Below are positions 34,098 through 42,713 of a stretch of DNA of 64,000 bases, one piece after another. Origin of the DNA: Saprospiraceae bacterium (lineage in GTDB: Bacteria; Bacteroidota; Bacteroidia; Chitinophagales; Saprospiraceae); contig JAEUUV010000242.1 of assembly GCA_016787285.1 (NCBI GenBank), forward strand, positions 8,905 through 72,904, given 5' to 3'. The notes beneath the pieces are model-generated. The model made no database searches. It saw only the letters and a program-made list of their open reading frames with translations, and had not been told where the DNA came from. Position numbers and translations under genes: made by a program. How positions within the stretch are numbered: position 1 is the stretch's first letter; every line of letters starts with the position of its first letter.

Positions 34098-34730
34098 TTA
34101 ACCATTTTTCCGCTTGAGCAGAATCTCTACATGGTCTACTTCCTGCAGACCCTTGTCAAGGGTTTCCTTGCTTTTGTTAATTTTGGACGACACCAGCGCC
34201 AGCGCTGCGCGAATTTCGGCCAAAGCCTGCTCGGGGTCTTCGCAGGTATCGTCTTCAACAGGGACATCCGCTTGTTTTTTCAGGCGTACAGGCTTTCGGA
34301 TTTCAGGCTCGACAACCGGCGATTGTGCCAACTCAGACGTATTTTCCGGCACAGCAGCCATCGGTTTTTCCAGAAATCCCGGACGTTCATTTTTTTGCGC
34401 CGGAGGGTTTTGAACTATTTGCCACGGCGGTTCCGGCACATTTTTCCGCCACCAAAGCCCTGCCGCGCAAAGCAACAGGATTACAGCCGCCGCGATGCTG
34501 TACCACCGCTGCGTGGTTCGGGGAAACAAATTCACCCGTTTCGCCGCAGGCGCCTGCACGGATTTCTCCTCCTGGAGGATACGAAACCAACGCGCTTCCT
34601 GTCGGAATTCTTCCGGCAAATCGTCACCGGCAGCAGTAAAAAACGCCTTGATCCGGCGCTCTTCTTCCAGCGTGGTTTCGCCTTCCCAGTAGCGGTCAAG
34701 CAACGTGCGCATGTCCGGTATTTGTGTCAT
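34098..34730 (-). CDS. Putative anti-sigma factor (single-pass membrane protein)
   Basis: It follows the ECF sigma gene after 12 nt. The N-terminus LLDRYWEGETTLEEERRIKAFF and a central TM helix are typical of this operon type. Confidence 0.55.
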   Translation of the reverse strand: MTQIPDMRTLLDRYWEGETTLEEERRIKAFFTAAGDDLPEEFRQEARWFRILQEEKSVQAPAAKRVNLFPRTTQRWYSIAAAVILLLCAAGLWWRKNVPEPPWQIVQNPPAQKNERPGFLEKPMAAVPENTSELAQSPVVEPEIRKPVRLKKQADVPVEDDTCEDPEQALAEIRAALALVSSKINKSKETLDKGLQEVDHVEILLKRKNG

Positions 34731-34742
34731 TTTGGTTTGTTT

Positions 34743-35267
34743 TTAAACATTTGCGGGGACGTAAGCATCCACCGCCACTAATTTTTCCCGAATGGTTTTT
34801 CGCGCCCGGTGCAGGCAAACTTTCACCTGATCCAACGAAATCTCCAGCACCTTGGCAATTTCCTCATAACTCAGTTCCTCCACATCGCGCAGGTGCATGA
34901 CCAAGCGTTGTTTCTCCGGCAGTTCCTGCATGAGGCGTCGGGCTTGTGCGGCGAGGTCGCCGAGTTCGGTCGCGCGCGCCGCATCGCCGGTATCGAACTG
35001 CTTGGCCGCCTGATCGTCCAGCGGCACTACCCGGCGCTGGGCCGTGGCGCGGAGTTTGTCCAACGAGCGGTTGCGCGTCAGGGTCATACACCAGGCTTCC
35101 CAGTTCGACACATCGGTAGCCTGACCTTCCGACGATTTCCAGACCCGTTCCAACACTTCCTGTACCACATCCTCGGCTTCGGGTATGCTCCCGGTGATCC
35201 GCAGGGCAAAGCGGTACAACTTGTGCCGGATTGGGTACACGTGGTGTTGGAAGATGGTCCAGTTCAT
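34743..35267 (-). CDS. ECF-subfamily RNA polymerase sigma-70 factor
   Basis: Region 2 (AEDVVQEVLERVW) and region 4 (LPEKQRLVMHLRDVEELSYEEIAKVL) are recognisable. Confidence 0.85.
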   Translation of the reverse strand: MNWTIFQHHVYPIRHKLYRFALRITGSIPEAEDVVQEVLERVWKSSEGQATDVSNWEAWCMTLTRNRSLDKLRATAQRRVVPLDDQAAKQFDTGDAARATELGDLAAQARRLMQELPEKQRLVMHLRDVEELSYEEIAKVLEISLDQVKVCLHRARKTIREKLVAVDAYVPANV

Positions 35268-35418
35268 GTTTGGGTTGAAAAAACAACTGCGTTTTTTGCG
35301 TGGCGATGGAGGAAAGACGGGCGAAAAAACAGGATGTTACAGAAAAGAAAAAAAATTCTGGAAAAATCGAAGCAGGTTCGTCAAAAGCGGCGTTATCCAA
35401 TAAAAAACTACCGCGCTT

Positions 35419-36432
35419 ATGAAACACATTGCCCTTTTGATTCTGCTCTCCGCCGTCCTTTTTTCTTGCAACGAAACCGGCACCGACTCAACCTCTCAAA
35501 TCAATGCCGATGAAAAAACCGCTACCGTTGCCGCGAGCGGCTTGCGCCTTGATGTGTCCGACAATCCGGAACTGACGTTCAAAAACCTGCGCTTGTACCC
35601 GGTGCTTGCCGATGCCGGATTGCTGGAAAACAACCGCCTCCCGATACTAAAAACGCTGGCCGAAGCCATGCAAACACACGGGTTTCGCATTACGGAACGC
35701 AAGCAGTTCGGGCGCGAACAGGAAACGTGGTACAATGGCCTAACGGTTCAGAACAAAAGCGCCGACCCTGTATTTCTCATGGCCGGCGACGTGGTCACGG
35801 GCGGAAATCAGGACCGCGTGATTGCCCACGACGATGTGATTCAGCCTGCTTCGCTGAAAAACATCGAAGTATTTTGCGTGGAAGCCGGGCGCTCAACCTA
35901 CTACAACCCGGCAGCACCGGAATCGGAAAAACAGGTGGCTGCGTTCAAGGGCTACTACAACGTAGCCAGTCCGCAAGTGCGCAAAGCCGTGTATAGCGGC
36001 AATCAGCAAGGGGTGTGGGGGGCCGTCGGCAAAGTGACCGAAGCCAATAACGCGACTTCCAGTACCCAGACCTATGCCGCACTGGAAACTGAAAACGCCA
36101 AAAAGGAACAGCGCGAAGCCTGCCTGCGCTTTTTTGAAGGCAAATTTGACAACCTGCCGGATGCCGTGGGCGTGGTGGCGGTGTGCGACGGCAAGGTCGT
36201 GGGCGTAGATGTTTTCGGCCACCCCAAGCTGTTCCGCCGGCAGTTCAAAGCCCTGCTGCACGGATTTGCCGCCGAGACGGCGTTTTCCGAAACTACTAAA
36301 GATGTACCCGGGCATGTCGCCGAAGCCGCCTTCCGTCAGGTTGTCCGCGAGGCCGACAAGGCACGCACGGGCACGGAGGCGGTGGGCAAGTTTTCGCTCG
36401 GCGATGCCTGGGTACACCTGTACAGCAAGTAG
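35419..36432 (+). CDS. Lipoprotein of an uncharacterised family (GGNQDR / FCVEAGR motifs)
   Basis: Lipobox LFSC. It is transcribed divergently from the ECF operon. The motif pair recalls the family I believe is catalogued as DUF6569-type (from memory, unverified). Confidence 0.45.
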   Translation: MKHIALLILLSAVLFSCNETGTDSTSQINADEKTATVAASGLRLDVSDNPELTFKNLRLYPVLADAGLLENNRLPILKTLAEAMQTHGFRITERKQFGREQETWYNGLTVQNKSADPVFLMAGDVVTGGNQDRVIAHDDVIQPASLKNIEVFCVEAGRSTYYNPAAPESEKQVAAFKGYYNVASPQVRKAVYSGNQQGVWGAVGKVTEANNATSSTQTYAALETENAKKEQREACLRFFEGKFDNLPDAVGVVAVCDGKVVGVDVFGHPKLFRRQFKALLHGFAAETAFSETTKDVPGHVAEAAFRQVVREADKARTGTEAVGKFSLGDAWVHLYSK

Positions 36433-37099: not shown

Positions 37100-38308
37100 A
37101 TGTCCAAAGTACTCATCATCGGCGCCGGCGGCGTAGGCCGCGTAGTGGCTTACAAGTGTGCCCAGCACCGCGACATCTTCGGCGATATCCTGTTGGCCAG
37201 CCGAACCAAAAAGAAATGCGACGCCATCGCCGACGCTATTTACAAGGCATACGGCGGTCGGAAAATCAAAACTGCCAAACTTGACGCCGACAATGTGGAA
37301 CAGACCGTGGCGCTGATCCGCAAGTTCCAGCCCGATTTAGTCATCAACGTCGCCCTACCCTACCAGGACCTTCCCATCATGGACGCCTGCCTCGAAACGG
37401 GCACGCATTACATGGACACCGCCAACTACGAGCCGAAAGACGTAGCCAAATTTGAATACTCCTGGCAGTGGGCTTATCAGGAACGCTACAAAAAGAAAGG
37501 CATCCTTGCCCTACTTGGCTGCGGCTTCGACCCCGGCGTGACGAGCGTGTACACCGCATACGCCAAGAAACATTACTTCGACGAAATGCACGAACTCGAC
37601 ATCGTGGACGCCAATGCGGGCAGCCACGGCAAGGCGTTTGCCACCAATTTCAACCCGGAGATCAACATCCGGGAGGTCACGCAACGCGGCAAATACTGGG
37701 AAAACGGCCAATGGGTGGAAACCGAGCCGCACGAAATCTGGAAAGACATCAACTACCCGGAAATCGGACCGAAGCGTTCTTACCTGATTTACCACGAGGA
37801 ACTGGAAAGTCTCGTCAAAAACTTCCCCACGCTCAAACGCGCCCGCTTTTGGATGACCTTCAGCCAGGAATACCTTACCCACCTGCGCGTGATCCAGAAC
37901 ATCGGCATGGCCGGCATCGAGCCCGTCCGGTTCAAAGGCGTGGACATCGTACCGCTCCAGTTCCTCAAAGCCGTGCTGCCCGCACCGGAGGAACTCGGCG
38001 AAAACTACACCGGCTTCACCAGCATCGGCTGCCGAATCAAGGGCATCAAAGGCGGCAAGGAACGCACGTATTATGTCTGGAACAACTGCTCCCACCAGGA
38101 TGCCTACAAGGAAACCGGTACGCAGGGCGTGAGTTACACCACCGGCGTGCCCGCCATGATCGGCGCACGAATGATTCTCGAAGGCAAATGGACCGGCAAG
38201 GGCGTGTTCAACGTGGAAGAATTCAACCCCGACCCGTTCATGGATCGCCTGAACAAAGACGGACTGCTCTGGCACGAAAAGGTGGATATTGATCTGGAAA
38301 TGGATTGA
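37100..38308 (+). CDS. Saccharopine dehydrogenase family protein, likely carboxynorspermidine dehydrogenase
   Basis: Rossmann motif VLIIGAGGVGRVVA. The ~400-aa length and C-terminal domain are typical of CANSDH. Confidence 0.75.
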   Translation: MSKVLIIGAGGVGRVVAYKCAQHRDIFGDILLASRTKKKCDAIADAIYKAYGGRKIKTAKLDADNVEQTVALIRKFQPDLVINVALPYQDLPIMDACLETGTHYMDTANYEPKDVAKFEYSWQWAYQERYKKKGILALLGCGFDPGVTSVYTAYAKKHYFDEMHELDIVDANAGSHGKAFATNFNPEINIREVTQRGKYWENGQWVETEPHEIWKDINYPEIGPKRSYLIYHEELESLVKNFPTLKRARFWMTFSQEYLTHLRVIQNIGMAGIEPVRFKGVDIVPLQFLKAVLPAPEELGENYTGFTSIGCRIKGIKGGKERTYYVWNNCSHQDAYKETGTQGVSYTTGVPAMIGARMILEGKWTGKGVFNVEEFNPDPFMDRLNKDGLLWHEKVDIDLEMD

Positions 38309-38327
38309 GGGGGTTAGAAAGTTTCGG

Positions 38328-38368
38328 GTTGGAAGGTTTCAGGTTCAGGTAACCTTCCAACCTGAACC
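38328..38368. repeat. Hairpin of the GGAAGGTTTCNGGTT repeat family (probable terminator)
   Basis: GGTTGGAAGGTT (38328-38339) pairs with AACCTTCCAACC (38351-38362). An alternative pairing is GGTTCAGGT with ACCTGAACC. Confidence 0.75.
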
Positions 38369-38437
38369 ATAGCAGCAATCCCTTAGTTTTTGAATTGAAA
38401 CAGGCGTATTTTTTGTCAAACACTTAATTTTAAAGCC

Positions 38438-39643
38438 ATGATTACGGGGTTGTATGTCAAAAATTTCCGCAGCATCCGCGATGCCTCCCTCGATCTGGGG
38501 CGATTCACCGTATTGAACGGCGAAAACAACAGCGGCAAAAGCAGTGTGCTGTACGCGTTGCAGGTGTTGAAGAATATTGTGACAAGCCCAAATCGAAGCA
38601 TGGACGACCTGCTTAATTTGAACTTTTTGAATCTGGGTGGGATCGAAGAAGTAATGTTTAATAAAAAAATAAACCTTGAGTTAAAAATTGGTGTGAGATC
38701 CGGCAATACGGAGAAGCCACAAGACCTGTTATCCTATTACTACTGGACACATACTTTATTAGGAGATACATTGATACTCAAAGGTAGAAAGCCCTATAAT
38801 TTTGATGGGAATCTTCATGTCAGCTTTCCTTATACATTAAACAAGGGTCAAAAAATAGAAATTGGGAAGTCCCCAAATCATACTTTTTTCTGGAATGGAG
38901 TTACCGCAGATCAGTTTGAAGGGTATAACGAGCAAGTCGATGCCTTGCTCTTAACTGCAGAAATTGATCAATGCGCTGCCAATCTTTCTGGATTAGACGT
39001 AATTCCAACTCATCGTGGTTTTTCCAGAGCAGCCTTTAATCTAATACCGTTACAGTACAACATCTATACTGAAGACGAGGTGGCTACCCTACTCGCATCT
39101 GACAAGGTTCTTTTATCACAGGTATCGTATTATTTCAAAAAAATTACAGGAAAAGAGTTTTCGGTTTCTTTGATGCAAGTACCAGGTCTCTTTTTTTTGC
39201 AAGTAAAGGATCCCGGTGCATCCACCTCAATTCAACTGGTCAACCAAGGCATGGGGATTAACCAAATCGTATTTCTCCTGGCCAAAATACTGTACAGTAA
39301 AAATCGCCTGATCTGCATTGACGAGCCGGAAATCCACCTCCACCCTACCCTGATCGAACAATTCATTCGGGTACTGGTGGAAATCTCGAAGGCAGAAGGA
39401 AAACAATTCCTGTTTTCCACCCACAGCGAGCACTGGATCATGTCGTTGCTGGCAGAAGTGTGCGAAGGAAACCTGCCCGCTTCGGATCTCAAGGTATATT
39501 ACCTGCGAAAACAAGGACTCGAAACCCTGGTCGAAGAACAGGAAGTGCAGGAAAACGGCCAGATCGCAGGTGGATTGAAAAATTTTCTGGAATCCCAAAT
39601 GCGTTTGGCGCAGCGGTTTTTTCCCGTTGAAATGCCCGGATAA
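38438..39643 (+). CDS. ABC/SMC-like AAA ATPase (AAA_21 / DUF3696-like)
   Basis: Walker A GENNSGKS (residues 28-35), signature-like NQGMGINQ, Walker B LICIDEPEIHLHP and H-loop FSTHSEH. The middle third is AT-rich. Confidence 0.8.
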   Translation: MITGLYVKNFRSIRDASLDLGRFTVLNGENNSGKSSVLYALQVLKNIVTSPNRSMDDLLNLNFLNLGGIEEVMFNKKINLELKIGVRSGNTEKPQDLLSYYYWTHTLLGDTLILKGRKPYNFDGNLHVSFPYTLNKGQKIEIGKSPNHTFFWNGVTADQFEGYNEQVDALLLTAEIDQCAANLSGLDVIPTHRGFSRAAFNLIPLQYNIYTEDEVATLLASDKVLLSQVSYYFKKITGKEFSVSLMQVPGLFFLQVKDPGASTSIQLVNQGMGINQIVFLLAKILYSKNRLICIDEPEIHLHPTLIEQFIRVLVEISKAEGKQFLFSTHSEHWIMSLLAEVCEGNLPASDLKVYYLRKQGLETLVEEQEVQENGQIAGGLKNFLESQMRLAQRFFPVEMPG

Positions 39644-39646
39644 ACG

Positions 39647-40123
39647 ATGGAACTGGTCGTCAACGAATGGTTTCTGGACTGGCACTCGCCGAACGCAAGC
39701 ATGGAAGAACAAAAACATGCAGGTCTGTTTTTGAAATGTCTGCTTGAGAATGACCACAAATTGGTGCTGCTTCGGGAAAGCCCGTTTATGCAAAAACTAC
39801 ATACTTACCGAAAAGCCTTCGACTTTTACATCCCTGCCCGCCTGTCGTTGAAAACCTTTTTCAGCAATATTCTGAACAACTCGGACAAATGCCGGATCGT
39901 AGAAAATGCACTACCACTACCAGCGGAACTGGAGGACAAACTTAGTCAGGGGAATTTTTCCAGCGACCGCTACCTGTTCGAGTCTGCTCAGGAAACAGAA
40001 CAAAAAATCATCGTCACGACCGATCAAAGGTTGATCGCCCACATCGGCCAAACCGATAATTTCAGGCTGATAACTTTCGAGGATTTTTTTCAAAACCATT
40101 GCCCAAAACCAGAAACCTCCTAA
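39647..40123 (+). CDS. Small PIN-like protein coupled to the ATPase (hypothetical)
   Basis: The ATG lies 4 nt after the ATPase stop. The N-terminal strand LVVNEWFL and the segment SSDRYLFESAQ...KIIVTTDQRLI resemble the acidic positions of PIN domains. This is inference only. Confidence 0.55.
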   Translation: MELVVNEWFLDWHSPNASMEEQKHAGLFLKCLLENDHKLVLLRESPFMQKLHTYRKAFDFYIPARLSLKTFFSNILNNSDKCRIVENALPLPAELEDKLSQGNFSSDRYLFESAQETEQKIIVTTDQRLIAHIGQTDNFRLITFEDFFQNHCPKPETS

Positions 40124-40140
40124 ACCGAAACCAGAAACCC
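40107..40140. repeat. Two AACCAGAAACC words (reverse complement of GGTTTCTGGTT) followed by a T-run
   Basis: AACCAGAAACCTCC at 40107-40120 and AAACCAGAAACCC at 40128-40140, overlapping the 3' end of the small gene. Confidence 0.8.
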
Positions 40141-40146
40141 TTTTTT

Positions 40147-40836
40147 ATGCGTATCCTTCTCGTCGAAGACGAACCGACCATCCGCGACGCCCTCCAACTC
40201 AACCTCGAACTGGAGGGCTACGAGGTCGTGCCCACCGGAAACGGGAAAAAAGCCTTGGAACTGGTAGCCGGCCAGCACTTCGACCTGCTGCTGCTGGATG
40301 TCATGCTGCCCGATGTAGACGGCTTCAGCATCACCGAGCAAGTACGGCTGTCGAATAACGAAGTGCCGATTCTCTTGCTCACGGCCAAGGACATGCCACA
40401 AGATCGCATCGCCGGTCTCAAGCGCGGCGCCGACGACTACCTGACCAAGCCGTTCAACCTCGAAGAATTGCTCCTGCGCATCGGCAACCTGCTGCGCCGC
40501 AGCCAGCGTGTGAAAGGCGAGGCGCCCGACCTGTTTGAGTTCGGAAACAACAAAGTCAACTTCGAAACGTACGAAGCCACCACCTGGCGCGGCGAAACCA
40601 TCGCGCTCACCCGAAAGGAAGCCATGCTCCTGAAACTGCTTGTGGAACGCAAAAACGAGGTGGTCAGCCGCAACCAAATCCTCCAGGCCGTATGGGGCTA
40701 CGACGTGTTTCCCAGCACCCGCACAATTGACAATTTTATCCTCGCTTTCCGGAAATACTTTGAAAAAGACCCGCGTGACCCGCAGTTTTTTCACTCCATC
40801 CGCGGCGTGGGGTACCGGTTTTCATGGAGTGATTAA
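40147..40836 (+). CDS. OmpR/PhoB-family response regulator (no adjacent histidine kinase)
   Basis: The ATG at 40147 gives MRILLVEDEPTIRDAL... Receiver motifs DLLLLDVMLPDVDG and LTAKD are present, with the winged-helix motif IRGVGYRF. Confidence 0.9.
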   Translation: MRILLVEDEPTIRDALQLNLELEGYEVVPTGNGKKALELVAGQHFDLLLLDVMLPDVDGFSITEQVRLSNNEVPILLLTAKDMPQDRIAGLKRGADDYLTKPFNLEELLLRIGNLLRRSQRVKGEAPDLFEFGNNKVNFETYEATTWRGETIALTRKEAMLLKLLVERKNEVVSRNQILQAVWGYDVFPSTRTIDNFILAFRKYFEKDPRDPQFFHSIRGVGYRFSWSD

Positions 40837-41039: not shown

Positions 41040-41422
41040 TGTTCAAACCAGACTTTTTCGCGGTTGTCCGGCGAGCCGTTGTAATTGATGAATATCTCCT
41101 CTCCGGGGGCAATATCGCGCAGGGCGTAAATATCAATGGTGCTGTTTTCGAAATCCATCCCGTAATCGGCGTTGGGTTCGTAGGCGTGGTTGTACAGGGA
41201 GCCGTATCCCAGTGCCAGGGCGTACCACGAGCCGTCGTCGCCCCAGTCGAAATAGTAGTCGTCGAGCATCGTTTGGCGCACGGCGGCCAGTTCGGATTTT
41301 GGGAATAAAAGTACCGGACACACCTCGATCACCGCGCCTTCCGGTATCGGCCCCGCCGCAAAAACGCCCATGCCATGCACATCGGAAGGGCCAAAATAAA
41401 TAGGTGTATGCTGGATACTCAT
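41036..41422 (-). CDS. SET-domain protein (putative lysine methyltransferase)
   Basis: HGMGVFA, GYGSLYNHAYEPNA and GEEIFINY are the SET signature blocks. It overlaps xseB by 4 nt. Confidence 0.8.
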   Translation of the reverse strand: MSIQHTPIYFGPSDVHGMGVFAAGPIPEGAVIEVCPVLLFPKSELAAVRQTMLDDYYFDWGDDGSWYALALGYGSLYNHAYEPNADYGMDFENSTIDIYALRDIAPGEEIFINYNGSPDNREKVWFEQ

Positions 41423-41452
41423 CGTGCTGCCTGTTTGCTTTTTCCGGAAAAT

Positions 41453-42304
41453 CTACCAACTCCCGCCGGCGCCGCCACCACCAAATGAACCGCCACCAAA
41501 ACCACCACCGCCCCAGCCACCACCACCACTGCTACCGCCGCCCCAACCGCCGCCACCGCCGAATGAGCCGCCGCCCCAACCGCCGAAACCGCCGCCGTGC
41601 CACCAGTCGTCGCCACCACGGTTACGACGACCGGTGCCGGTGTACACTGTGCTGTTTTTGGACACCACGTATGCGACCACCACGATAATAATGATCAAGG
41701 AAAGCGCCAAAATCAGAAAAATCCAGGCCGGCGGTGCCTCCCGGTCGCTTTTGTCGGCCTTGAACTCGCCGGCCAGCGCGCGCATGATGTCGGTCAGGCC
41801 GGCGTCAATACCCTGGAAATTTTGCTCCTGCTTAAAATACGGGATCATCGTGTTCCGGATGATACGCCCCGCCGTGATGTCGGGCAAAGCCCCCTCGGTG
41901 CCGTAGCCGGTAGCAATGAATGCTCCGCGGTTGGGCTGCTCGGTCACGATGAGCACCACGATGCCGTTGTTTTTGCTCTTGCGCCCGATTCCCCAGCGGT
42001 TGCCCAGTTCGAAGGCGTAGGAGGAGCGGTCGAAACCGCCGATGTCCGGCCGGATCATCACCACAATTTCGGTAGAGGTGCTGTCCCGGTAGCGCTGGAG
42101 TCGGTCTTCCAGAATAAATTTTTCCTGTGCCGACAACCACCCCGAGTAGTCGTGAACGAACACCGCAGGGTCGGGTTTTTCGGGAAAAAGTTCGGAACTC
42201 TCCTGGCTGAACAGCCCGCCGACCAAAAGCAAAACCGCCGCCAGCACCGGCCACAGCCTAAGCCGCAATCCGTTTCGCTTACCGTCCACCGTAAATAATT
42301 TCAT
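41453..42304 (-). CDS. TPM-domain (YgcG-like) membrane protein with a Gly/Trp-rich tail
   Basis: TPM domain, then a TM helix, then a GGGFGGWGGGSFGGGGGWGGG... tail. The start could be 42304, 42316 or 42322. Confidence 0.75.
   Translation of the reverse strand: MKLFTVDGKRNGLRLRLWPVLAAVLLLVGGLFSQESSELFPEKPDPAVFVHDYSGWLSAQEKFILEDRLQRYRDSTSTEIVVMIRPDIGGFDRSSYAFELGNRWGIGRKSKNNGIVVLIVTEQPNRGAFIATGYGTEGALPDITAGRIIRNTMIPYFKQEQNFQGIDAGLTDIMRALAGEFKADKSDREAPPAWIFLILALSLIIIIVVVAYVVSKNSTVYTGTGRRNRGGDDWWHGGGFGGWGGGSFGGGGGWGGGSSGGGGWGGGGFGGGSFGGGGAGGSW
41456..41620 (-). repeat. Low-complexity coding repeat (Gly-rich tail)
   Basis: CCRCCRCC-type simple sequence on the plus strand, encoding G/W/F/S repeats on the minus strand. 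Confidence 0.85.
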
Positions 42305-42713
42305 CAGGAAGTTCATTATCATTGTCTTTTGGATCAGCGGGGAAATGGTGTCGCAGTTGCTCGCCGATCTGTTCAATTACCCGGCAAACGCCTTCGCAGG
42401 CTTTTTCCTGTTGCAAATGTTCCCGGAGCAGTTGTTTTTCAGCATCCCAGAACTGAAAACCGACCCGTTCGTGAATACCCGAATCGCCCCAGATGGCAAA
42501 GTGGTGCGACTTGTCGGCGATGTACAGCAGCACAGCATTCCGCTGTTTGGTGTTGAACATTCCGAACAGGTGGAATATCTCCGCCGCCCGCTCCACGGGG
42601 TGGTCGCGGTCGCAGAAGTCTTCGATAAACAGCCTGATCTCGCCGCTGGTGCGTTGCTCCGCAGCGCGAATGGCGGCGAGAATCCGGGTTTCGTCGTCGG
42701 GTGTGAAAAGCAT
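42279..42713 (-). CDS. TPM-domain protein (DUF477-like)
   Basis: ILAAIRAAEQRTSGEIRLFIE and NAVLLYIADKSHHFAIWGDSGIH are typical of the family. Confidence 0.75.
   Translation of the reverse strand: MLFTPDDETRILAAIRAAEQRTSGEIRLFIEDFCDRDHPVERAAEIFHLFGMFNTKQRNAVLLYIADKSHHFAIWGDSGIHERVGFQFWDAEKQLLREHLQQEKACEGVCRVIEQIGEQLRHHFPADPKDNDNELPDEIIYGGR

Follow-up and report, generated by a model that had tools for sequence, protein, structure and literature searches.

The stretch analysed here, a Saprospiraceae sequence of 64,000 nucleotides (nt) that we call the window, carries at positions 38438-40123 a cassette of two genes: one for a 401-residue ATPase of the ATP-binding cassette (ABC) type and, directly behind it, one for a 158-residue small protein. 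A first-pass annotation made from the letters of the sequence had proposed this pair as a candidate defence or abortive-infection module. Our analysis arrives at the same candidate as the best reading, because the small protein has a predicted PIN-like fold, the two genes co-occur in unrelated contexts, the ATPase is of a defence type and the cassette behaves as an accessory element. With a probability of about 0.65, we take the cassette to be an accessory two-gene 'ABC ATPase plus PIN nuclease' operon acting in anti-phage defence or abortive infection, a distant relative of the HEC-03 system whose ATPase belongs to the DUF3696-tailed NsnB clade. The two genes are:

38438-39643, forward strand: gene of the 401-residue ABC/OLD-type ATPase, in the neighbourhood of NsnB and the HEC-03 ATPase
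39647-40123, forward strand: gene of the 158-residue stand-alone small protein with a predicted PIN fold, the putative nuclease effector

Three nucleotides (ACG) separate the TAA stop of the ATPase gene from the ATG of the small gene, and the two genes share one reading frame across this TAA-ACG junction. A translational fusion or programmed readthrough was considered and rejected, because related loci have gaps of 0 to 17 nt in differing frames; the shared frame looks coincidental. The GC content of the pair is 0.43 and 0.46, against 0.56 and 0.57 in the flanking dehydrogenase and response-regulator genes, and the GC content at third codon positions (GC3) is 0.49 and 0.55, against 0.75 and 0.74. 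The gene 5' of the ATPase encodes a saccharopine/carboxynorspermidine-type dehydrogenase (Sacchrp_dh); the other neighbours in the window are an OmpR-type response regulator, xseB, SET and ferritin. In all of this the first-pass annotation was accurate: it had described two tightly coupled open reading frames (ORFs) of these lengths, a foreign composition and unrelated, ordinary flanking genes, and it had correctly located the ATPase motifs GENNSGKS (K34), NQGMGINQ, LICIDEPEIHLHP and FSTHSEH, as well as the small-protein segments LVVNEWFL and SSDRYLFESAQ...KIIVTTDQRLI. Its further claim that the cassette is bracketed by repeats did not survive, as the only repeats are a 16-nt hairpin at 38323-38366 and a 15-nt repeat confined to the 3' end.

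Conservation in the ATPase was determined on 32 family members taken from related loci, and the motifs proved to be invariant or nearly so:

38519-38542, forward strand: Walker A motif, G28-E-N-N-S-G-K34-S35; G28, N30, G33, K34 and S35 invariant
39242-39265, forward strand: ABC signature-like motif of the G.G form, N269-Q-G-M-G-I-N-Q276; N269, G271, G273 and Q276 invariant
39308-39346, forward strand: Walker B and D-loop region, LICIDEPEIHLHP, with D295-E296; E296 and E298 to P303 invariant
39416-39433, forward strand: H-loop, S327-T-H329-S-E-H; S327 to E331 invariant
39476-39589, forward strand: C-terminal DUF3696-like helical tail, residues 347-384; predicted docking surface for the PIN partner

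At position 295, 28 of the 32 members have D and the other four have E. Because Walker B retains the canonical D/E-E pair, the ATPase looks catalytically competent by its motifs. Its Pfam matches are AAA_15 (expect value, E, 2.2e-28) and AAA_21 (3.7e-20), together with weak matches to SMC_N and RecF at the N-terminus. Among the PADLOC models, NsnB of the Menshen system comes first (3e-40, 137 bits), followed by AriA of PARIS (7.6e-33, 113 bits) and, in third place, HEC-03B (PDLC04148; 1.2e-28, 98 bits), then by Old and PDC-M55A. When the models are ordered by the best scores of the whole ATPase family, the sequence is NsnB, HEC-03B, AriA and PDC-M55A, and NsnB is the top model for each of the 32 relatives. 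The label 'DUF3696-like' given to the tail in the first-pass annotation stands at the level of the family, in which 25 of the 32 relatives are matched by DUF3696 (best E 2.6e-5), and not for the window protein itself, where the Pfam model stays below the cut-off (E 0.067). Invariant residues of the tail are Q368, G374, Q375, G378, G379, L380 and F383. A role of this tail in docking the PIN protein is what the AlphaFold 3 models of NsnB-NsnC (PMC12065111) would suggest by analogy.

No Pfam, PADLOC (E up to 1) or NCBIfam model matched the small protein. The fold of the small protein was examined by structure prediction. Its AlphaFold 2 (AF2) model has a predicted local distance difference test score (pLDDT) of 91.4 and a predicted template-modelling score (pTM) of 0.85; strands at residues 2-5, 38-42, 82-85, 121-124 and 140-143, with helices between them, follow the PIN order, and a single PIN-like domain spans the 158 residues from end to end. 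Foldseek searches of the PDB with this model returned PIN proteins throughout the top matches (HARP, PAE2754, VapC, SMG6, Dis3). The best match is the HARP RNase P 7og5 (E 3.8e-3, probability 1.00, template-modelling score, TM, 0.56); TM reaches 0.57 overall and lies between 0.48 and 0.57 for VapC and FitB-type PIN domains. As a control, the AF2 model of the HEC-03 PIN protein (pLDDT 91.5) was searched in the same way and obtained equally modest PIN scores (FitB, E 2.4e-3); the two lists overlap in 7vwo_A, 3zvk and the SMG6 PIN domain. A viral fold library yielded one unnamed match at E 5.2e-3 and a Medusavirus PIN protein, and adds nothing. Small-protein profiles run against PDB sequences gave noise only (MetJ, a designed repeat protein and others). 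The HEC-03 PIN profile gave noise too, so that these searches provided no sequence-based link of the residues to VapC. Judged by its model, then, the small protein is a PIN-fold protein, as the first-pass annotation had surmised.

A word-indexed search with the small protein found 24 clusters, all of them unannotated hypothetical proteins, the named ones mostly from Saprospiraceae metagenome-assembled genomes (MAGs). An exhaustive profile search raised the family to 246 representative clusters at 50% identity. The best 150 of these 246 representatives are all at most 177 residues long, and therefore none of these 150 has a C-terminal effector domain. Conservation was read from 156 full-length members that share about 25% overall identity, and it is concentrated at the following places:

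39662-39670, forward strand: N6-E7-W8 motif, at the C-terminal end of beta-1, where canonical PINs have their first catalytic Asp
39794-39796, forward strand: K50, in the helix after beta-2, roughly at the position of the second acidic residue of canonical PINs
39962-39988, forward strand: S106-D107-R-Y-L-F-E-S-A114 motif, at the third PIN acidic position
40010-40033, forward strand: I122-V-T-T-D126-Q-R-L129 motif, after beta-4, at the fourth PIN acidic position

Position 6 is N in 129 of the 156 members (83%) and D in 26; E7 is found in 146 members and W8 in 154. After beta-2 there is no conserved acidic residue; S45 occurs in 121 members and K50 in 154. The third and fourth canonical acidic positions are invariant, since D107 is present in 156 of 156 members and D126 in 155; around them, Y109 (144 members), L110 (154), T124 (148), T125 (140) and L129 (154) are also strongly retained. 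That D107, D126, E7, T124 and N/D6 have been kept in a family with so little overall identity argues for a functional site, and the pattern does so all the more because the inPIN domains of Menshen are without conserved catalytic residues (PMC12065111). The small protein may hold a canonical Mg2+ RNase centre.

Genomes were scanned for related loci with the small-protein alignment (A1). The ATPase gene lies directly 5' of the small gene in all 38 loci with enough upstream DNA, and the gap between the two is 0-17 nt in 34 of 35 related loci. In locus L040 (8001-8252) only residues 90-151 of the small protein align, after a 69-nt gap behind the ATPase gene, and the PIN gene may have decayed there. 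The identities of the two proteins to those of the window fall together, being 70-71%/73-85% in the closest loci, 51-58%/42-56% in the middle ones and 35-41%/33-41% in the furthest, and the pair persists even in members whose small protein is only about 25-31% identical to that of the window. Co-occurrence of the two genes as a unit, which the first-pass annotation had put forward as a check, was thus borne out: the pair is conserved in more than 40 independent loci, and the cassette is therefore far more than a chance arrangement. At least five genomic contexts could be distinguished: the pair lies between a dehydrogenase and a response regulator, between an S8 peptidase and Pyr_redox, next to an acyl-CoA dehydrogenase, between a biotin ligase and short-chain dehydrogenases, or between a MiaB-like gene and an acetyltransferase. 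A single Saprospiraceae MAG, F1F2.bin.416, has two divergent copies of the pair on different contigs (L018 and L029), with ATPases 57% and 35% identical to that of the window. The named relatives of the small-protein family come mainly from Saprospiraceae and other Chitinophagales, with the addition of Thermoplasmataceae MAGs. Three contigs (L126-L128) carry the pair with a PIN protein that represents its 90% identity cluster (that of P0185), and this cluster also groups proteins of several of these archaeal MAGs, which suggests, subject to the accuracy of MAG binning, that the pair has been transferred between domains.

Empty sites were sought by a metagenome scan anchored on the dehydrogenase. 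In the empty loci L048 and L050, the dehydrogenase is 89% and 85% identical to that of the window, and the response regulator 84% and 77%; the two genes are spaced by 78 nt (L048) and 13 nt (L050), with no cassette between them. Loci L047 and L049 are occupied, and their flanks are as similar to those of the window as the flanks of the empty sites are. Averaged over 14 syntenic occupied loci, the two flanks are about 89% and 83% identical to those of the window, the ATPase about 55% and the PIN protein about 49%. With empty sites, low GC content and fast divergence, the cassette behaves as an accessory element. The same junction (window positions 38309-40146) holds other genes in other Saprospiraceae, namely a ParE toxin-antitoxin pair in L006 (3979-4551) and L022 (6111-6684), and a Uma2-family endonuclease together with a ParE toxin-antitoxin pair in L016 (5365-6708). 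With these occupants, the junction looks like a small hotspot at which conflict genes integrate.

On its left side, the inserted segment is bordered by two features:

38323-38366, forward strand: 16-nt inverted repeat (hairpin), 94% complementary with a 12-nt loop, directly 3' of the dehydrogenase gene
38367-38437, forward strand: AT-rich leader 5' of the ATPase gene, the presumed promoter region of the operon

The hairpin is probably the terminator of the upstream dehydrogenase gene and would mark the left edge of the inserted segment; the empty locus L048 also has a terminator-like hairpin between its dehydrogenase and response-regulator genes. The scan for sigma-70-type promoters and terminators is uninformative for a Bacteroidota-like genome. 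A repeat search over 37800-40700 found no repeats flanking both ends of the cassette, and comparison with the empty sites L048 and L050 revealed no recognisable target duplication. The 15-nt direct repeat mentioned above, CCAAAACCAGAAACC (40103-40117) and CCGAAACCAGAAACC (40125-40139), lies at the 3' end only and does not flank the cassette; it spans the stop codon that ends the small ORF and the short gap in front of the response-regulator gene. Further out, 2-4 kb 5' of the cassette, are an ORF resembling an extracytoplasmic function (ECF) sigma factor (34743-35267, reverse strand), a neighbouring ORF on the same strand (34098-34730) and an ARPP-1 domain protein (35419-36432; Pfam PF20208, E 2.7e-46). 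As far as can be told, these genes (34098-36432) are unrelated to the cassette. On the other side, the ORF at 41453-42376 (reverse strand) has a Gly/Trp-rich low-complexity C-terminus (GGGWGGGS...), with a Pro-rich ORF on the opposite strand; this tail accounts for a local GC-skew excursion near 41250-42000.

The first-pass annotation held that a pairing of an ATPase and a PIN protein of this size could not be assigned to any named system. This view is out of date, since HEC-03 is a validated system made of a DUF3696 ATPase and a 157-residue PIN protein. HEC-03 (Hma-embedded candidate 03; Payne et al., bioRxiv 10.1101/2024.01.29.577857) is encoded in Pseudomonas cichorii by WP_025259138.1 and WP_025259137.1; it was validated against phages, requires both genes (Fig. 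S3 of that preprint) and is toxic when induced. Table S2 of the same preprint describes a 'DUF3696 domain-containing' ABC ATPase followed by the 157-residue PIN protein, and the two genes, at 322707-324092 and 324079-324552 of the forward strand, overlap by 14 nt. In PADLOC-DB v2 the PIN model (PDLC04147) is labelled 'HEC-03A' and the ATPase model (PDLC04148) 'HEC-03B', the reverse of the labels in the preprint, which could confuse comparisons.

The window cassette resembles HEC-03 in having two co-oriented, abutting genes, a DUF3696-type ABC ATPase first and a stand-alone PIN protein of about 157 residues (158 in the window) second. The two ATPases align over their full length by BLASTP (22% identity, E 9e-13), and the models that the HEC-03 ATPase retrieves in PADLOC, namely HEC-03B (765 bits), NsnB, PDC-M55A and AriA, place both ATPases in one neighbourhood. 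The two PIN models agree in the order and, to within a few residues, in the spacing of their secondary-structure elements, and the motifs SDR..(F/L)..A and (T/L)D are common to both proteins. When the wide alignment of the window PIN family (A2) was compared by hhalign with that of the HEC-03 PIN family (A3), the result was an E of 7.8e-5 and a probability of 61.6% over 110 columns; D107 falls on the invariant D110 of the HEC-03 motif SDRKFLAVA, and D126 on the Asp of the NALD129 motif. Reciprocal searches between the two families with hidden Markov models (HMMs) gave weak matches, to about E 1e-3, in the same region. At the level of sequence, homology of the two PIN families is thus suggestive. 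Because this comparison and the neighbourhood and alignment of the ATPases agree, we regard the window pair as having the HEC-03 architecture and as being probably a remote homologue of HEC-03, so far unannotated. The differences are also clear. The HEC-03 PIN protein keeps the canonical DTN at beta-1 and an invariant Asp after beta-2, whereas in the window family beta-1 bears N(D)-E-W, the second acidic residue is missing and K50 is invariant. The ATPase of the window has about 60 residues fewer than its HEC-03 counterpart and a smaller insert, and it scores higher with NsnB than with the HEC-03 ATPase model. The named relatives of HEC-03 are from Pseudomonas, Burkholderia, Stutzerimonas and a betaproteobacterial MAG, while those of the window family are mainly from Chitinophagales.

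From these analogies we infer a defence function, an interaction between the ATPase and the PIN protein, and a nuclease activity with its probable substrate. As in HEC-03, PARIS, Septu and the modelled NsnB-NsnC complex, an oligomer of the ATPase would hold the small PIN protein in an inactive state through the C-terminal DUF3696-like tails. A phage-derived trigger sensed by the ATPase, and coupled to the binding or hydrolysis of ATP, would then release or activate the PIN protein. The latter would cleave nucleic acid, most likely RNA, with a metal site around D107, D126 and the N/D6-E7 pair, and this cleavage would stop either the infected cell or the phage.

Several observations weigh against a defence operon related to HEC-03. 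No Pfam PIN model scores above threshold for the small protein or for its family members; sub-threshold matches among 126 members concern PIN_9 in 13 (best E 0.016), PIN_3 in 7, Mut7-C in 2 and DUF188 in 1, and the window protein itself does not have even one such match to a PIN model. The window PIN protein is missed by the PADLOC model of the HEC-03 PIN, which gives 9.4e-86 for the true HEC-03 protein, and the hhalign probability drops to 3% when the target is a single sequence and to about 1% when a narrow alignment is used. The canonical PIN acidic tetrad (D-E-D-D) is incomplete, the first Asp being mostly Asn and the second acidic residue missing, so that a nuclease activity is uncertain. 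Searches of plasmid and phage collections found no homologue of the small protein. The defence-island setting that the first-pass annotation had suggested looking for is absent as well: the neighbours in the window are ordinary genes, and the same is true of most relatives. Finally, the occurrence of the cassette at the same site in many Saprospiraceae is also compatible with long vertical residence.

Vertical inheritance within Saprospiraceae is a feature of one alternative, namely a housekeeping pair in which a RecF/SMC-like ATPase and a PIN nuclease would process nucleic acids in RNA maturation or DNA repair. The shared dehydrogenase/response-regulator site in many Saprospiraceae MAGs, with ordinary genes around it, fits such a pair, and so do the weak SMC_N and RecF matches of the ATPase N-terminus and the RNase P HARP as top fold match of the small protein. 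We nevertheless hold it to be very unlikely: close relatives have empty sites, GC3 is strongly deviant, the pair has diverged at a much higher rate than the genes beside it, it recurs in several contexts that are unrelated, one MAG has two divergent copies of it, and its PIN protein occurs in a cluster common with archaeal MAGs; moreover, the top ATPase matches are all defence-system models. A toxin-antitoxin-like addiction module is another alternative, in which a PIN toxin would be neutralised by the ATPase in a selfish, locus-stabilising unit with no meaningful protection against phages. The PIN fold is closest to VapC-type toxins, the Pfam text for AAA_21 reads putative AbiEii toxin of a type IV toxin-antitoxin system, the insertion site itself collects ParE toxin-antitoxin pairs, and the toxicity of induced HEC-03 points the same way. 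However, a 401-residue ATPase with fully conserved catalytic motifs exceeds the needs of a neutralising antitoxin, and HEC-03, the closest characterised analogue, does protect against phages. Such a module thus seems unlikely to us, with the proviso that the difference between addiction and abortive infection is partly semantic and that sequence cannot settle it.

Menshen (NsnABC) is a system reportedly described by Millman et al. in 2022. It comprises NsnA (ParB-DUF262), NsnB (an ABC ATPase that ends in a DUF3696 tail) and NsnC (an inactive PIN at the N-terminus and a toxin at the C-terminus), and AlphaFold 3 models predict that the DUF3696 tails of NsnB clamp the PIN-like domain of NsnC (PMC12065111). 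Seen from there, the window pair might be a reduced or remnant Menshen, that is, NsnB with a truncated NsnC after the loss of NsnA and of the toxin; its PIN protein would be an inactive docking domain, and the pair would be either non-functional or dependent on partners elsewhere. NsnB is indeed the best PADLOC model for the window ATPase and for all 32 relatives, the N-terminal domains of NsnC are PIN-like and retrieve PDB 1V8O just as the window protein does, and the Menshen survey was seeded on ParB-DUF262 and is therefore blind to pairs without NsnA. Yet no ParB-DUF262 gene adjoins the pair in any of the more than 40 loci, and no DGQQR motif is present in any frame of the 64-kb window. The two-gene form is stable across about 25% identity and in the contigs whose PIN protein clusters with archaeal MAGs, which is not expected of a remnant, and the best 150 representatives, at no more than 177 residues, show no trace of a C-terminal effector domain. 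In addition, D107 and D126 are invariant and E7 is conserved, unlike in inPIN domains, and Walker B has the canonical D-E instead of the EN of S. silvestris NsnB. On balance a remnant Menshen is quite unlikely. A different departure, doubtful in our eyes, keeps the defence function and concerns the small-protein family, which would not be a degenerate VapC-like RNase: it would form a PIN-like lineage of its own, not described before, whose centre has been remodelled (N/D6-E7-W8, S45, K50, D107, T124-T125-D126). Its chemistry or substrate could then be another one, for example Lys-assisted, FEN-like or DNA-directed, and together the family and its DUF3696 ATPase would make up a separate defence system, exchanged between Bacteroidota and Thermoplasmatota archaea.

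If the cassette is a defence operon related to HEC-03, the defence annotation tools now in use overlook an entire branch of ABC-ATPase/PIN systems: they would flag the ATPase only as an orphan NsnB/AriA-like protein, and Pfam, PADLOC v2 and NCBIfam do not detect the effector. Counted by its effector alone, this branch comprises the 246 clusters at 50% identity, in Saprospiraceae, other Chitinophagales and archaeal MAGs. Saprospiraceae and Chitinophagales are abundant in activated sludge and freshwater.

Among the known systems, VapBC is similar in the fold of the small protein, which matches VapC and FitB-type PIN domains, and dissimilar in the rest: the window has no small DNA-binding VapB antitoxin, its upstream gene encodes a 401-residue ATPase, and its acidic tetrad is incomplete. 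PARIS (AriA/AriB) and Septu (PtuA/PtuB) share with the window the composition of two genes, an ABC ATPase and a small nuclease, and in both of them an ATPase oligomer binds and controls the nuclease (PMC12065111). Their effectors have other folds, TOPRIM/DUF4435 in AriB and HNH in PtuB as opposed to PIN in the window, and the small protein was matched by neither the AriB nor the PtuB model of PADLOC. With Menshen, the window pair has in common an ATPase of the NsnB type, the G.G form of the signature, which is GxG in NsnB (PMC12065111), a DUF3696 tail and a PIN-like partner. It departs from that system in two defining features because it has neither NsnA, the upstream gene being the Sacchrp_dh dehydrogenase, nor a toxin domain, its partner being a single 158-residue domain without C-terminal nuclease or toxin. 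The PIN family of the window also has invariant acidic residues, and its ATPase a Walker B of the D-E type, where that of S. silvestris NsnB is described with 'EN' (PMC12065111). HEC-03 and Menshen appear to be linked by a conserved core, a DUF3696 tail with a PIN-fold partner, the PIN itself being the effector in HEC-03 and, putatively, in the window pair, and an adaptor for a fused toxin in Menshen. The invariant residues described here provide a clean set of mutants for asking if sequestration is the way in which DUF3696-tailed ATPases control PIN proteins. The window pair thus extends a known theme and leaves the current understanding of these systems standing, with HEC-03 as its nearest characterised counterpart.

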